64,000 bases of DNA from a virus. The DNA is taken from the IMG/VR virus record IMGVR_UViG_3300042569_003487, positions 1-64,000 of that record; one strand, given 5' to 3'. Shown here piece after piece: positions 1,778-56,955 of the stretch (the stretch's first letter is position 1; every line of letters starts with the position of its first letter). The notes under the pieces were generated by a model. That model was not told the DNA's origin. It did no database searches and saw nothing but the letters and a program-made list of their open reading frames with translations. The position numbers were made by a program, and so were the translations under genes.

Positions 1778-1799
1778 AGCTTATTAATTAATTGATATA

Positions 1800-1842
1800 G
1801 TAAATATAACCAATCCGCTTGATACAAAAAAATTTATTTAAT
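1800..1842 (-). promoter_or_regulatory. putative host-RNAP (Bacteroidetes-type) early promoter
   Basis: Minus strand reads AAATAAATTTTTTG...TTATATTTAC: a TTTG -33-like box plus a TAnnTTTA -7-like box; same layout as 722-762. Confidence 0.5.
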
Positions 1843-1858
1843 AAAAGTTATTAACAAT

Positions 1859-2047: not shown

Positions 2048-2353
2048 TTATAGTTTGTTTACTTCGGTTTCGCGCTTAACTCTATAGAATAGCTCGGCAG
2101 CCCATTCGTATTCTTCCCTTGCTATAGCTTCGTCTAGCGCAGCTTGACATCCATGATATAGAGCATGTAATAAGTATTCTAGGTACTCAGCACTCCAGTC
2201 TTCTTCGCCTGCAGTTCGGCCTAGATCTTCGGCTATCTTGCCTAGACATTGGCGTATCTGTTGCTGGTCTCGACCTACTCCTTCTAGGCCGGTTAGGATA
2301 CGTTCTTTAATTATCTCAGATAGGTACTCTGGCATTGCATTATCTTTAAACAT
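2048..2353 (-). CDS. hypothetical protein with C-terminal UvrB/UvrC (UVR)-like motif
   Basis: ALDEAIAREEYEWAAEL matches the UVR pattern. Confidence 0.55.
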   Translation of the reverse strand: MFKDNAMPEYLSEIIKERILTGLEGVGRDQQQIRQCLGKIAEDLGRTAGEEDWSAEYLEYLLHALYHGCQAALDEAIAREEYEWAAELFYRVKRETEVNKL

Positions 2354-2360
2354 TATAGTT

Positions 2361-2367
2361 ATTATAC
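2361..2367 (-). promoter_or_regulatory. GTATAAT (-10-like) promoter class, representative site
   Basis: GTATAAT occurs on the minus strand upstream of non-structural genes at 1150, 2361, 9627, 10325, 25111, 29501, 31697, 32296, 39934 and 40854; one-mismatch variants at about 1451, 5506, 7690, 19424, 27151, 28649, 50745 and 59695. Confidence 0.6.
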
Positions 2368-2371
2368 TAGA

Positions 2372-2820
2372 CCTGGCAGATAGGTTTAGCTGCGCAGGGG
2401 AGGTACCAGACTAGCACAGATACTGCTACCAGGACCGGCTGGAGAACAGCCCTGGTCAGCTGGCCAGGCTAGCCCAGGGGCTGATACAATACTGCTCCTG
2501 GCTGCTCCTGGGGACTGTCCCTGGCTGCCCTGGGGACCGTCCTGGCAGCTGCCCCCAGGTGACTCCAGGGGTACTCCAGGGGACTGCCAGGCTGCTCCCA
2601 GGTGACCCTGGGGGACTACCCAGGGGCTACCCCGGGGGCTATCCCTGGTATAGTTTTTTGTAGCCAGGGGGAAGCAAGCATTTTTACTTTTTTCTCTTTC
2701 CTCCCCGGCCTGGAAGCTGTGCTGGAACCTTTTTGGCTAGACGGACTTTTATCCCGAGCTTTTCCTAGGGGCATTTCTACTGGTAGAGATTTTCCCCTGG
2801 CCTGGGGCAGGTTATCCAGG
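2372..2820. repeat. GC-rich non-coding island with 23 CCWGG sites, core spaced about 11 bp apart
   Basis: CCWGG at 2372, 2429, 2451, 2464, 2474, 2497, 2507, 2520, 2529, 2541, 2555, 2565, 2576, 2587, 2598, 2607, 2620, 2644, 2664, 2709, 2796, 2801 and 2816; lies between divergent gene blocks. Confidence 0.85.
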
Positions 2821-2862
2821 TCTTTTGCCAAATAAATATCTTTATAATAATAAAGAAATACT

Positions 2863-3288
2863 ATGAACAAGATTAAATCGTTTAATGAATACCTAGTAGA
2901 GTCTGCTGATATAGCTCAGCTTGCTCAAGACCTAGGTGGTACAGTAGAACCTGTAGAGGGCCAGACAGACTGGTCAGCAGTTAGAGGTTATCTAGATGTT
3001 AACCGTGAAAAACTTAAAGAAACCCTTATAAAGATAACTGGTGATAGAATAACTGCAATGGTAGTTATTAAGGTTGCCGATATCTATGCTGAAGACAAGC
3101 GTGATGGGGTAACTCCAAATCCAGACTGGTTAGGAGAAGCTCCAATTGTAGATGAAAACACGCCAGATCTACAAGAAATGGTTAAGGTGGTTATTGCGGC
3201 TATTCAGCGTAATCTAGCTAAATCAGATCAAGCTACCCTTGCTAAGTTGAGTACTGCAGGTAAAGGGATTAAAACCAGCCGTTATTAA
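2863..3288 (+). CDS. putative internal head protein with CTS-like leader
   Basis: N-terminus MNKIKSFNEYLVE-S; ATAAATA at 2832. Confidence 0.55.
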   Translation: MNKIKSFNEYLVESADIAQLAQDLGGTVEPVEGQTDWSAVRGYLDVNREKLKETLIKITGDRITAMVVIKVADIYAEDKRDGVTPNPDWLGEAPIVDENTPDLQEMVKVVIAAIQRNLAKSDQATLAKLSTAGKGIKTSRY

Positions 3289-18483: not shown

Positions 18484-18677
18484 AATCCTTGTAATACTGT
18501 AATACTAGAAATGGCCGAGACCAACTGGTCTAAGCTTTCTATAGTTAATAATACCAAAAAATCTGTAAAAGTGGCACCTGGGTATTCATATTCAATTATA
18601 CCCTCTAGCTGCTCTAGGGCTACCCTGGTGACTGCCAGGGACTCATTTGGAACCCTAATTAGGTAACTAGTCCTCAT
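18480..18677 (-). CDS. hypothetical protein
   Basis: Fills the gap in the operon; ATGA-coupled to the HDAC gene; start moved to MRTSYL. Confidence 0.4.
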   Translation of the reverse strand: MRTSYLIRVPNESLAVTRVALEQLEGIIEYEYPGATFTDFLVLLTIESLDQLVSAISSITVLQGL

Positions 18678-24294: not shown

Positions 24295-25095
24295 TTATTG
24301 TTGTAGACTTGGAACCCAATGTGTAGTTCTGCCGTCTGCTGTTTTTTCTCTAATTACTATATTTCCATGAGGATCTGCACTCTTTCCATAGACTTCAAAT
24401 TCAAAAACAAAGTCGCCAGTTTCACCAGTAACTTGTTGATAATTTCTAATACTTGCTCCGCCCTGTGCATATGACGCCCTACTAATTAATTTAGAATAGT
24501 CCCATAGTAATTGAATCTCATTATCGGTAAGATCCTTAACCAATCTATGCGGGGAAATCTTAGAACGATATAACATTTCACATTTAATATAGTTTCCAAT
24601 TCCTGCAAAAAGCCTCTGGTCCATTAGCGCTTCTACAACAGTTTTATTTGGAACCCTCTCGAATGATCTAATCGTATTATAAACAGATGCAGTTGTGTCG
24701 TTTAGCGCATCAACTCCTAGGGTTTTTAATTTTGCGTCCAATTCAACCTTACTTGCAAACTTAAGGGTACCGAATCGGCGCTGATCAATAAAAAACAGTT
24801 CAAGACCATCATCAAATGAAAGTTTAATGTGTGCATGTGGTTTTTGATAGATTGACCAAAACCCGCTCATTCCCAATGTAATCCAGATAGACATGGCGCC
24901 TTCCAATTCTAACCAGATGAATTTGCCTTTAACTCCGCCTCCAACTACCTCCAGGGGCAGCTCCAGGGCTCCCAGGCCAACTGGGGGAGTCTTTAAGAAG
25001 CGTCCACCAAGTATTTCTACACTAGTTAGTTTTCTATTAATACAATAATTTCGCAAACCTTCATATACGCGTCTGCACTCTGGTCCTTCTGGCAT
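24295..25095 (-). CDS. mutM: Fpg/Nei DNA glycosylase/AP lyase (no zinc finger)
   Basis: MPEGPE N-terminus, GKF, LGMSG, DQRRFG, H2TH motif GIGNY; ends in DGRTTHW with no Cys4 finger. Confidence 0.9.
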   Translation of the reverse strand: MPEGPECRRVYEGLRNYCINRKLTSVEILGGRFLKTPPVGLGALELPLEVVGGGVKGKFIWLELEGAMSIWITLGMSGFWSIYQKPHAHIKLSFDDGLELFFIDQRRFGTLKFASKVELDAKLKTLGVDALNDTTASVYNTIRSFERVPNKTVVEALMDQRLFAGIGNYIKCEMLYRSKISPHRLVKDLTDNEIQLLWDYSKLISRASYAQGGASIRNYQQVTGETGDFVFEFEVYGKSADPHGNIVIREKTADGRTTHWVPSLQQ

Positions 25096-51735: not shown

Positions 51736-53694
51736 TTAGTTTTTTTGATCTCCATAAAATCCAGCCAGTGTCTTTTTATACGAATCTAGATAAGTTTCAT
51801 CAAAAACTTGACGCTGTCCAGGTTTTTTTAGTTGTGGAGTATCATTTAGATAACCTACTAAATCTGAGCTAATCTTGGTTGAGCCATCACCCTGACTAGA
51901 ATTTAAGATTTTTTCAGTTATTTCTTTTTTGTATTCCTCGCTTGTACTGTCCCAAACTTCTGTTCCTAATTCAAGAAAACTAGGAGAATCAAAGAATGCG
52001 GCAGTGTTAACACAAGTCATTGCTAAGTCATCGTTTCCACTTTGACTTCTATATGTACCATTAGTTGATCTACCAAATGATCCTAATTCCATTACAGTTT
52101 TACTTTCGTTTGGAAGAATTTTATTAACATTAACGTGGTATTTAAATCTTTCACAAAATTTAATTTTATTGGTAACGCTTAGTTTAAGACCGGGCTTAAG
52201 TAATTTAGTTGCTTCTGTGTGTTTGGAATGAATTAGTTGTCCAGGCCAATACTGTTCGTTATTTGCAATTTTGTCCAAGATAAAATCCCCTTTATGGTTT
52301 AATTCAATTAAGACTTTAAGATTTTCAAAATTAAAGAGTCTATAAACCAAATATTCTAAAACTTGAGCATATTCATTAATTGTTTGCTTATTACTTCTCC
52401 AAGTTGCAACTTGCACAAGGGATAGGCAATCCATTTCGCTTTTTACTAGATTTTTAATTGGTTCCAACATTTTAACTGGAAGAGGTGCAACTTTAAATAC
52501 ATTAATAACTGAAAAGTCTTTTCCTGTTCCGTCTGCTGTATCGACTGAAAATACATATCGATCTGGCGAATTTCTAAAATCCTGCTCGTCCCAATCCTTT
52601 AGATTTGGATGTACTGTAAAGTTCCCTTCCATTAAGGCAAGAACTTCCGGATCCCAATTAATATTAAGAGGCTCTTCATATTTAGTCATAATTCCAAAAA
52701 TCTTTTTAAGATCTTTAGAAGAAAGCAATAATCGATCGGACGAAAAGAACTGTAGACCATATTCCTGGTTAAAGTCTTCTTCTGATCCCATGTTTGCAAT
52801 AGTTTCAGCTTTCCATTTATCATCTCTACCTGGAACTTGCCACCAGTCTACTCTTAGCGGAGTATAAGTATTTAGTCCATTTACTGCATCCATATAGATT
52901 TCATAGAATCTATTCATACCATTTGGAGTTGATGTAATAATAATCTTGGAGGTAGTTGATGCAGAAATAGTAGGGTAAATTGCTCGATAAAAGAAATCTA
53001 AGTATGCTGGTGAGATGTGAGCAAACTCATCAATGTATAGTAAGTGAATAGTAAAACCAATACCTGTATTTTTGGTTGTAGTACGTCCAATTAATCTACA
53101 GCCATTATCGAACTTCATCGACATAACGTTATTTGAAATACAGCCAGGTTTTAGGAAAAATGGCAAATTTTCAAAAATAGATTTAATTTTATCAACAACC
53201 TCTTTGGTTGTACTTGCAATGTTGGCTACCGCTAAAACATTTTTATCTGTATGGAAAATAAGATACCATGCAACAAATACGCCAGACATTACAGTTTTAC
53301 CAATTTGACGGCTTGCCATTAAGATATTAAAGCGGTTTGCGCCAAATGCCTTAATAATTTCCTCTTGGTAATCACGTAAAACAATTTGTTCTACTCCATA
53401 TTCAGTTAAAACCTGAGCATACTTATTTGCAAAGTAACCTACATCAGATTTACAGCGCTTAATTTCTTCAAGTTCTTCTGGAGTATATTCAAAAACCAAA
53501 TTTTGCTTTTTCCAGGCAGGGTCATTATCCTTAAATGGAGAATTCTTAATGGTCTTAATATCAATTAAACCATTTTCAAAGTCTAGTAGAAGTTGATCTA
53601 CTTTTTTTGTAGTCCAGACTGCACTATTTTCAGTATCATCCATTCTAGATACCTGTACGCTAGTCCTTCCCCCTTTTGATAAAAAATCTTTCAT
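51736..53694 (-). CDS. terL: terminase large subunit (T4 gp17-like)
   Basis: LRDYQ, SRQIGKT (Walker A), LYIDEFAH (Walker B), STPNG, VDTADG..KD, DDLAM. Confidence 0.95.
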   Translation of the reverse strand: MKDFLSKGGRTSVQVSRMDDTENSAVWTTKKVDQLLLDFENGLIDIKTIKNSPFKDNDPAWKKQNLVFEYTPEELEEIKRCKSDVGYFANKYAQVLTEYGVEQIVLRDYQEEIIKAFGANRFNILMASRQIGKTVMSGVFVAWYLIFHTDKNVLAVANIASTTKEVVDKIKSIFENLPFFLKPGCISNNVMSMKFDNGCRLIGRTTTKNTGIGFTIHLLYIDEFAHISPAYLDFFYRAIYPTISASTTSKIIITSTPNGMNRFYEIYMDAVNGLNTYTPLRVDWWQVPGRDDKWKAETIANMGSEEDFNQEYGLQFFSSDRLLLSSKDLKKIFGIMTKYEEPLNINWDPEVLALMEGNFTVHPNLKDWDEQDFRNSPDRYVFSVDTADGTGKDFSVINVFKVAPLPVKMLEPIKNLVKSEMDCLSLVQVATWRSNKQTINEYAQVLEYLVYRLFNFENLKVLIELNHKGDFILDKIANNEQYWPGQLIHSKHTEATKLLKPGLKLSVTNKIKFCERFKYHVNVNKILPNESKTVMELGSFGRSTNGTYRSQSGNDDLAMTCVNTAAFFDSPSFLELGTEVWDSTSEEYKKEITEKILNSSQGDGSTKISSDLVGYLNDTPQLKKPGQRQVFDETYLDSYKKTLAGFYGDQKN

Positions 53695-53696
53695 AA

Positions 53697-54422
53697 TTAA
53701 ATGATTTCAAAAATAGTTGAGCTTAAATCTTCATCGTCATTTTCTTTTTCAATTAAATGCTCTAAGCCTCTTTCCGTCATCAATGAATTTTTTTCATTTG
53801 GATTAGTCAGCCTATTATCAAAATCATTATTCAAACCATCGCTCTCAATTTCTTTCATGATATTTTTAGTACCAGCCGTAATATAATAGTCTCCGGCTTG
53901 AATAGCATTTACAGAAGAGGCAGGGAGTCCAGCTTGGTCCCCCTTTGAATCAACTTCACTACGCATTTTCTTGTACGTATCCTCTAAGAACAACATATAG
54001 TTTGCTTGTGTTTTAGTAACTGTGGTAAGACGATCCTGCAATTGTGACATTACTTCAAATAAACGCGGATGTGCAGCACCCTGATTTATTTCTTCCATAA
54101 TTCTTTCAATCGCCATCTTAATAGTTTTATGCTGAAAGAACATGGTCTCGATATTCATATTATCGAGTTCTTTCTTTTGTTTTAGGTAATCGTGTTGAGT
54201 AATTAAACCTAAATCTACATAAAATTTAAATAGGGAATCTGTAATCTCAAGAGCTTTCTTCTTGAAACCTGAACTCATTTCATCAAAATCAATAGGAGGA
54301 TTTTGCTCAAGTTCATTAAAACGATCGTCGACTATATCATTTTCTGAAGTATCTCCAGAATAGGTGCTTAAGAAACTTTCGAGTTCGTTTTTTATTTGTG
54401 TTTTCTTCTCTTTGCTGATCAC
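53697..54422 (-). CDS. terS: terminase small subunit (T4 gp16-like)
   Basis: HPRLFEV motif; immediately upstream of terL. Confidence 0.65.
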   Translation of the reverse strand: MISKEKKTQIKNELESFLSTYSGDTSENDIVDDRFNELEQNPPIDFDEMSSGFKKKALEITDSLFKFYVDLGLITQHDYLKQKKELDNMNIETMFFQHKTIKMAIERIMEEINQGAAHPRLFEVMSQLQDRLTTVTKTQANYMLFLEDTYKKMRSEVDSKGDQAGLPASSVNAIQAGDYYITAGTKNIMKEIESDGLNNDFDNRLTNPNEKNSLMTERGLEHLIEKENDDEDLSSTIFEII

Positions 54423-56454: not shown

Positions 56455-56921
56455 GGGGCTGTTTTGGCGTTTGACAAGCGGTCGTAGTTCTTTGAATGCA
56501 GGCGGAGTTAGTATTGGAAACTCCTTAATAACCTATACGAATAATAACTGACAATAAGTCAACTTGGACTTTCGAAGACGCTATGTCTTTCGTAGGTGCT
56601 GATTTAGCAGTAGCTGCCTAATCGCTCCCGTATCACTCATGGGACTTTAATAAGAAGTGAAAGCTAAATCCAGGTGGCTCCCTTAATAGTCAAGGCTGAC
56701 CTTGAGCATCTGATCGTAGTCGATCTATACAGGGGGCGAAAGAGTTGGAGTAACAGGTCGGAGCTCTACTAAATAATTTCGAGACCAGGTTGTTTTTCTG
56801 ATGGGTTTCCCACATACATCAAATCAGATATTTTGTCCAATTTAGAAAAAATGGACTAAGCCTGTGAATGAATTCATTGAAGTAGCCGGATTGGACACGG
56901 GTTCGACTCCCGTCAGCTCCA
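56455..56921 (+). ncRNA. ssrA: tmRNA, tag (A)DNKSTWTFEDAMSFVGADLAVAA
   Basis: GGGGCTG/CAGCTCC-A acceptor stem with G3.U70; T-arm ACGGG-TTCGACT-CCCGT; tag ORF 56550-56621 after ATAACT, ending AA-stop; CCA not encoded. Confidence 0.92.
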
Positions 56922-56955
56922 CTACTGTATTTTTCTAGGTGAATAAATAACCTAT

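Follow-up and report, generated by a model that had tools for sequence, protein, structure and literature searches.

A helically phased CCWGG array in a clade of uncultured jumbo phages: a candidate protein-docking element at the head of a one-way gene block

Layout of the CCWGG island

The DNA analysed here (hereafter the window) is the first 64 kb of the viral record IMGVR_UViG_3300042569_003487, which is 141,925 bp long, has a GC content of 35% and is about 55% complete according to CheckV. This record is referred to below as G000. A GC-rich island lies between two genes, geneB on the minus strand and a gene for a 141-aa protein on the plus strand. From left to right, the features of the locus are:

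2048-2353, minus strand: geneB, encoding a 101-aa acidic four-helix protein; the sole gene that constantly adjoins the array
2354-2371, minus strand: proximal promoter of geneB, with the -10 box GTATAAT at 2361-2367, 7 nt upstream of the ATG; unchanged in all 9 sequences
2372-2480, no strand assigned: left degenerate array, with 5 CCWGG and the variants CCAGA, CTAGC and CCGG; the least conserved part
2481-2495, no strand assigned: AT patch 1, resembling a -10 box and bordering the core array on its left
2497-2648, no strand assigned: core array of 14 head-to-tail units of about 11 bp (13 CCWGG and CCCGG at 2631)
2643-2669, plus strand: inverted repeat, two CCWGG arms around an A/T loop that contains AT patch 2
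2647-2654, plus strand: AT patch 2, GGTATAGT, a right-facing -10 box of the same promoter class
2664-2708, plus strand: T-rich block with ACTTTTTTC, near-invariant in close relatives
2799-2826, plus strand: terminator-like hairpin GGCCTGGG/TCCAGGTC, then TTTT; stem kept, loop free
2831-2838, plus strand: AATAAATA box, 24 nt before the gene for the 141-aa protein; invariant in 9 of 9 sequences
2863-3288, plus strand: gene for the 141-aa protein, right of the island

A preliminary description, made from the letters of the window, had reported 23 CCWGG pentamers in about 450 bp of an otherwise AT-rich genome. Recounting gave the same figure: positions 2372-2820 hold 23 exact copies in 449 bp, with totals of 103 for the window and 189 for the entire record. 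A genome-wide density scan showed that the island is the sole dense stretch of G000, the next-densest 450-bp stretch containing 4 copies. The 35% GC of the genome rises to 59% over 2372-2820 and to 66% in the core (2491-2662).

The spacing of about one helical turn proposed for positions 2497 to 2644 was also borne out. The 14 sites of this segment (13 CCWGG and the CCCGG at 2631) stand head-to-tail at intervals of 10, 13, 9, 12, 14, 10, 11, 11, 11, 9, 13, 11 and 13 bp, with a mean of 11.31 bp (sd 1.54) and a best-fitting period of 11.2 bp, a regularity matched in none of 2000 random placements of 14 points. The units are asymmetric direct repeats in which CCWGG is followed by GGACT, TGACT or GGTACT, or else by CTGCT, giving CCWGG-(G/T)GACT-N or CCWGG-CTGCT as the core consensus; spacers vary from unit to unit yet fall into these two or three templates. 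Tandem Repeats Finder returned periods of 10-12 and 21-22 bp, the latter being a super-period of about 22 bp with two CCWGG per double unit.

Two outward-facing -10-like boxes of the GTATAAT class bracket the core array. On the minus strand, AT patch 1 reads GTATTGT in G000, GTATAAT in the relative L009 and GTATAGT, GTATACT or GTATATT in other relatives; on the plus strand it reads TGnTACAAT, and its direction is ambiguous. AT patch 2 reads GTATAGT on the plus strand, or GTATAAG in the L006 group. These same variants serve as the -10 box of geneB: GTATAGT in G002, GTATAAG in G004 and G011. GTATAAT, GTATAAG and GTATAAA boxes show a 2.4-fold intergenic enrichment, and 14 of them sit 5-28 nt upstream of gene starts. 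Both AT patches are best described as putative promoters, and the promoter bracket is secure for the G000 subclade only, because the AT patches of G004 read GTACT and not GTATA. Since other promoters of the GTATAAT class work without an array, the array is not part of the basal promoter. If AT patch 2 is a promoter, the T-rich block would be the 5' end of a rightward transcript. A variable stretch separates this block from the hairpin at 2799-2826. The AATAAATA box at 2831-2838 resembles the T4-type late promoter consensus, and TATAAATA occupies the equivalent position in G004 and G011. A sigma-54 promoter reading of TGGC motifs failed on spacing and conservation.

The genes left of the island form part of a long one-way block of small genes, as seen in complete relatives. 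The switch from early minus-strand genes to late plus-strand genes that had been proposed for this point stands as a change of strand, which is real but local; the early and late labels are deduced from promoter types. Within the small-gene block, a repeated intergenic cassette was observed at 691-781 and 1780-1858 (minus strand). Its copy at 1780-1858 carries TGTTAATAAC (1847-1856, minus strand), then TTTG ... TATATTTA, a promoter of Bacteroidota style. A single cassette promoter box is present in the G000 record because the small-gene block runs off the contig end.

Conservation among close and distant relatives

The island was found in all 8 metagenome relatives and, further off, in four genomes of 250-271 kb, an equivalent in related phages being a check that the preliminary description had suggested. 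The close set comprises these 8 metagenome contigs and the 216,815-bp viral contig G001, with the island between homologues of the same two flanking genes and 17-24 CCWGG in each. Core identity is 90-97% in five relatives whose flanking genes show 63-84%, and 80% in one lineage. The left array (2372-2480) shows 67-77% identity in 7 of the 8 relatives and 93% in the near-identical L009. The T-rich block is identical in 8 of 9 close sequences, L013 having one change at 2665, and its motif TACTTT.T.C is invariant even in G002, G004, G006 and G011.

Changes were then broken down by letter, with sites defined on the window alone. CC/GG letters were changed in 7% of cells over the whole island and in 3% in the core, as compared with 20% and 15% for other G/C letters and 17% and 17% for the central W. 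Changes in CC/GG letters were about three-fold rarer than in other G/C letters across the relatives (pooled p 4e-18; individual relatives p 0.0002-0.008). Changes of W were nearly always A/T swaps, at 5-7 sites (2499, 2543, 2567, 2589 and others), and were uncompensated on any fold-predicted pairing partner. Because W swaps freely between A and T without compensation, CCWGG itself is under selection, and on DNA. As judged from these alignments, selection on CC.GG with a free A/T centre is the signature expected of a degenerate double-stranded DNA recognition word, not of RNA stems. According to the preliminary description, the pentamer and its phase were what is conserved; spacers do differ between units, but across relatives they are conserved, with 6-15% changed in the core. 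The spacers being constrained too, a reader of the array would therefore see more than the pentamer. Indels in the array measure 10 and 12 nt only, about one helical turn each, and are insertions in the left array of relatives.

The terminase large subunit (TerL) of these phages is of the T4 type, and its distant neighbours are huge uncultured phages, PAU, MaF61 and Lak phages. Viral contigs whose TerL is 67-68% identical carry one such array each, beside a geneB homologue: G002 (253 kb, 94% complete), G003 (271 kb, 100% complete), G004 (270,962 bp, 100% complete) and the fragments G006, G009 and G011. The geneB homologues that flank the array in G002, G004, G006 and G011 share 33-43% amino acid identity; the gene on the island's other side is not conserved in this wider clade. 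A 15-mer of the core array, CCAGGTGACTCCAGG, is also present in G002 and G004 with its orientation to geneB unchanged. Together with the inverted repeat around an A/T loop, TACTTT.T.C and a CCCC..GGGG hairpin before TATAAATA, it recurs in the same order and orientation, and the units keep one orientation with respect to geneB across the clades. In G002, 12 sites give an independent period of 11.6 bp. The island is the densest CCWGG stretch, in single copy, in every genome compared; in four genomes the densest 450-bp window holds 22, 17, 14 and 11 sites, against at most 6 elsewhere. It heads a one-way block of small genes of 40-85 kb.

Beyond this clade, the CCNGG array is absent from Sphingomonas phage PAU and Flavobacterium phage MaF61, the closest cultured relatives by TerL, and no DNA similarity to deposited phages was found. 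An exact-pattern scan of 2.9 million viral contigs matched the G002/G004 clade alone. The same scan of prokaryote genomes returned chance matches in GC-rich genomes only, and so gives no clue to the host. An assembly artefact or contig-end effect was ruled out, the island being internal in G001, G002, G003 and G004.

The alternative that overlapping ORFs account for the repeats was also checked. No ORF with a start spans the array, and no start-bearing frame is common to the 9 sequences; the open frames in the GC-rich stretch differ in frame and extent among these nine, and 1-nt indels occur in relatives. The island is thus non-coding. A coding repeat, for example a collagen-like one, was rejected on the same grounds and because a period of 11.3 bp is not a multiple of 3. 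Arrays of GGWCC with a strict 9-bp period (GGT CCT xxx) do occur in G003, G004 and G008 (L103 at G004:181331-181614, L104 and L105); these are collagen-like Gly-Pro-X coding repeats, and are absent from G000, G001 and G002.

Docking, replication and RNA readings

The island is a real, selected and clade-specific cis element: it is unique in each genome, phased, conserved across the clade, selected at CC.GG, non-coding and in fixed synteny with geneB. We tentatively favour, at somewhat less than an even chance, the view that it is a cis-acting cooperative protein-docking array, operator- or iteron-like, that controls the flanking promoters. In this model, the CCWGG units of about 11 bp would be bound cooperatively by a sequence-specific protein of phage or host, each turn of the helix taking one protomer, and a nucleoprotein filament would result. 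The two outward-facing -10 boxes are 157 bp apart, a gap occupied by the core array; the left box would face geneB and the long small-gene block, and the right one the T-rich leader and the late-type gene. Once loaded, the array would therefore act as an operator or enhancer that sets the two promoters together where the block begins. The protein-wrapping platform suggested earlier agrees with an array that is phased, conserved, unique, non-coding and selected at CC.GG; its specific forms, with TerS, an initiator or methylation in control, found no support.

Several observations count against a docking array. The 5-bp palindrome is short for a typical dimeric regulator, 166 more CCWGG are scattered over the genome, and simple boxes leave the conservation of the spacers and the invariant T-rich block unexplained. 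No candidate reader was found either: the OmpR/PhoB winged-helix domain PF00486 was absent from six related phage genomes, HU and HU-HIG domains were not found above cut-off in G000 or G001, and tubulin and ParA were not found above cut-off in the genomes searched. The ParM model had no match in the phage genomes, a result that is uninformative since its control was silent. The genes neighbouring the island include no Rep-like family or initiator-like gene, and no small basic adaptor gene was found beside the array. The AlphaFold model of the geneB product (pLDDT 85) has four helices, with no fold match in the PDB (best E 0.68) and, in BFVD, a sole near match to an uncharacterised phage protein (E 2.2e-3, TM 0.77). 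No Pfam or PHROG family was assigned to it. Judging from this model, an acidic four-helix protein with neither an informative fold match nor a DNA-binding fold, geneB is unlikely to encode the reader of the array.

Known systems offer partial parallels to a docking array. The Pho boxes and other OmpR/PhoB tandem sites are 11-bp head-to-tail sites that reach the -35 position of promoters devoid of a -35 box, and the low-affinity DnaA box arrays of oriC are head-to-tail sites that build a helical filament. Both have far fewer sites than the island; moreover, the six related phage genomes lack a winged-helix response-regulator domain, and the island lacks DnaA-box-like 9-mers. Closer in geometry is the parC locus of plasmid R1, where two sets of five 11-bp repeats, one per turn, flank a promoter and each repeat binds a ParR dimer; binding is cooperative and the array doubles as operator (PMC2241845). 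parC has 10 repeats in 159 bp, whereas the island has 14 core and about 10 degenerate units in some 300 bp, GC-rich and centred on a palindromic pentamer, in a jumbo phage of lytic type with no parR/parM-like genes adjacent or detected (ParM with the uninformative control mentioned above). In phage phi29, a multimeric p4/p6 protein-DNA complex of regular periodicity occupies the non-coding control region between divergent early and late promoters (PMC3100819, PMC10899789), a layout comparable to that of the island if the temporal classes of its promoters are as we infer. The phi29 region spans about 220 bp, and p6 reads bendability with a 24-bp period, not a defined word. By analogy, the array would work most like the 11-bp arrays of parC and the p4/p6 region of phi29, while belonging with neither.

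Phased short-repeat arrays are a route by which plasmids and phages arrive at partition complexes, orisomes and transcription switches, and no such array is known from the uncultured freshwater jumbo phages, with genomes of 250-290 kb. The present array is a sharply defined cis element, unique per genome and conserved above the surrounding genes. Lying where the largest one-way gene block begins, it offers a handle on the regulator and on the start of gene expression.

An origin of the iteron type, in which double units of about 22 bp would bind an initiator and the adjacent T-rich block would melt, appears unlikely. The super-period of 21-22 bp, the invariant T-rich block adjoining the array, the location in front of 40-85 kb of co-oriented genes and the single copy per genome are all in keeping with it, and the layout is like that of the R6K, RK2 and lambda origins. 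Cumulative GC skew, which had been suggested as a check, does not point to the island: its extrema in G000 lie elsewhere (maximum at 14.6 kb, minimum at 82 kb), and in the complete genome G004 the skew is monotonic, with no extremum at the island. Over 90 kb separate the island from the PolB and DnaB genes, none of its neighbours is initiator-like, and the T-rich block is no more AT-rich than a genome of 35% GC. T4-type phages, moreover, replicate largely in a recombination-dependent manner. A DnaA-box reading of TTATCC at 2749 and 2812 was rejected because the motif is not conserved. As a separate observation, the family-B DNA polymerase of these phages is apparently split into two ORFs of about 460-570 aa that align to separate parts of the Pfam model, with 38-45 kb between them (G000:C1:136207-136539; 141092 and 179687 in G001; 49042 and 94348 in G002; 72582 and 116853 in G004).

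We consider equally improbable that the island is a non-coding RNA gene or leader, with the array or the T-rich stretch transcribed from the plus strand to serve, for instance, as a sponge offering many sites to an RNA-binding protein. The plus strand does give the better consensus fold (-121 vs -104 kcal/mol for the minus strand; covariation term -3.3 vs -0.6), and several stems are retained by G-U wobbles that are possible on this strand only. The -10-like AT patches and the strongly conserved spacers would also fit. Two hairpins, at 2643-2669 and 2799-2822, hold up across clades, and these are the only RNA pairs that do. The first forms 11 pairs in the RNAalifold consensus, and its inverted repeat is retained with two-sided changes in 3 pairs while others are broken; the second, followed by TTTT, keeps its stem through G-C to G-U changes as its loop varies freely (pairs 503-510/519-526). 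Set against this, Rfam has no match for the island or for the distant islands, and the folding energy is ordinary, with z values of -1.7 (plus strand of the core), -2.8 (minus strand of the core) and +0.75 (right part). Two-sided changes occur in only 6 of 121 pairs, all in one lineage, predicted pairs are broken by W swaps, and the phage's genuine tmRNA has 43% GC as compared with 66% for the core. A long hairpin in which five CCTGG would pair with five CCAGG was ruled out, the W swaps of relatives being unmatched on the partners. It is plausible that a short leader or sRNA runs rightward from about 2661 to 2826, which would be compatible with a DNA array.

The tmRNA itself was found at full length at window positions 56455-56924 on the plus strand (Rfam RF00023, 97.4 bits, E 1.3e-38), with the tag peptide VKADLEHLIVVDLYRGRKSWSNRSELY according to ARAGORN. 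The intergenic gap around it, 600 bp long, separates divergent genes, and ahead of the tmRNA stands TAGTATTATACTA, a sequence readable as a -10 box on either strand.

Methylation, packaging and partition readings

The Dcm/EcoRII site is CCWGG with the very A/T degeneracy seen here, and the presence of 23 such sites in 449 bp led to the proposal of a packaging (pac) or initiation site. In such a site, cytosine methylation of the cluster would gate terminase cleavage or initiation, as at the pac site of phage P1. Both are clusters of short methylase-type words in a phage; P1 has 7 sites, inside the terminase gene and with known Dam dependence, whereas the island has 23 phased sites far from the terS-like gene, with no phage methylase found and no sign of unique ends. 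A methylation-gated site of this kind is very unlikely here. The TerL is of the T4 type (gene at 51736-53694), and together with the adjoining terS-like ORF (53697-54422) it lies 49-51 kb from the island, the terS-like gene 51 kb off; the distance is the same in G004. The ends of the G004 assembly overlap by 127 bp, closing it into a circle, and the G003 assembly is a permuted version of that genome.

Nor did the search for a Dcm-like methyltransferase in G000 and its relatives yield any candidate. C5 and N4/N6 methyltransferases (PF00145, PF01555) were found in none of six related records, including G000, G001, G002, G003 and G004, three of which are 94-100% complete, and the Dam-type model PF02086 had no match in G000 or G001, the two genomes searched with it. 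No signature of VSP repair was seen, CTWGG and CCWGG both being at expectation. Outside the island of G000, 166 CCWGG were counted and 166 expected under a Markov model, a ratio of exactly 1.00, which also speaks against the earlier idea of a decoy for host restriction or methylation enzymes. The pac, origin and methylation-sensing readings are all weakened.

The picture differs between genomes. The observed/expected ratio of CCWGG outside the island is 1.00 in G000, 0.92 in G001, 0.82 in G002 and 0.63 in G004, the last being the second lowest of 1022 pentamers and a point in favour of a methylation-related role. The CCWGG share among the array's CC(N)GG/CCGG sites is 0.88, 0.81, 0.64 and 0.46, respectively. 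About half of the CCWGG sites are replaced by CCGG (also CCSGG) in the distant relatives, and the G004 island is kept despite the depletion of CCWGG elsewhere in that genome. The shift from CCWGG to CCGG is a trend and not a test, because the four genomes compared amount to two or three independent lineages. Since G004 depletes CCWGG outside the island, the word is seemingly a target of some of the clade's hosts, and differences between hosts in CCWGG-specific restriction may lie behind the gradient of avoidance. CCGG would escape marking by Dcm, and the trade of one word for the other alongside genome-wide depletion is a further point against methylation gating. From these word counts, it is suggested that the reader accepts CCGG and that the array is kept against restriction pressure. 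A Dcm/EcoRII word that shifts to CCGG under avoidance of CCWGG would offer a possible natural test case of a functional motif facing host restriction.

The array could also be imagined as an epigenetic sensor, with a reader that loads on the 14-23 phased CC(W)GG boxes in one cytosine-methylation state only, so that the promoters at the head of the small-gene block would respond to the mark of the previous host. We regard this as just as doubtful as methylation-gated packaging; if it were true, the trade of CCWGG for CCGG would be an arms race between the sensor and host restriction of CCWGG. Most improbable of all is a centromere-like partition site of the parC/tubC type serving a plasmid-like carrier state, which shares with R1 parC the geometry of two sets of direct repeats of about 11 bp on either side of a promoter-like patch (PMC2241845) but would have to do without the tubulin, ParA, ParM (its control being uninformative) and adjoining small basic adaptor that were sought in the genomes searched.

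Two runner-up CCWGG clusters of 4 sites each were noted in G000, one near 108.5 kb and the other at window positions 18577-18640 (minus strand). The latter consists of two GC-rich hairpins with CCWGG-type arms (CCCTGG CAGTCA CCAGGG, then CCCTAGAGCAGCTAGAGGG) directly upstream of a GTATAAT box at 18595-18601, a miniature in the style of the island. Three CCWGG within 26 bp at 24951-24976 (minus strand) are coding and lie inside the ORF 24295-25095, near the N-terminus of a 266-aa protein that starts with MPEGPEC and is, by eye, a candidate Fpg/Nei-like glycosylase.
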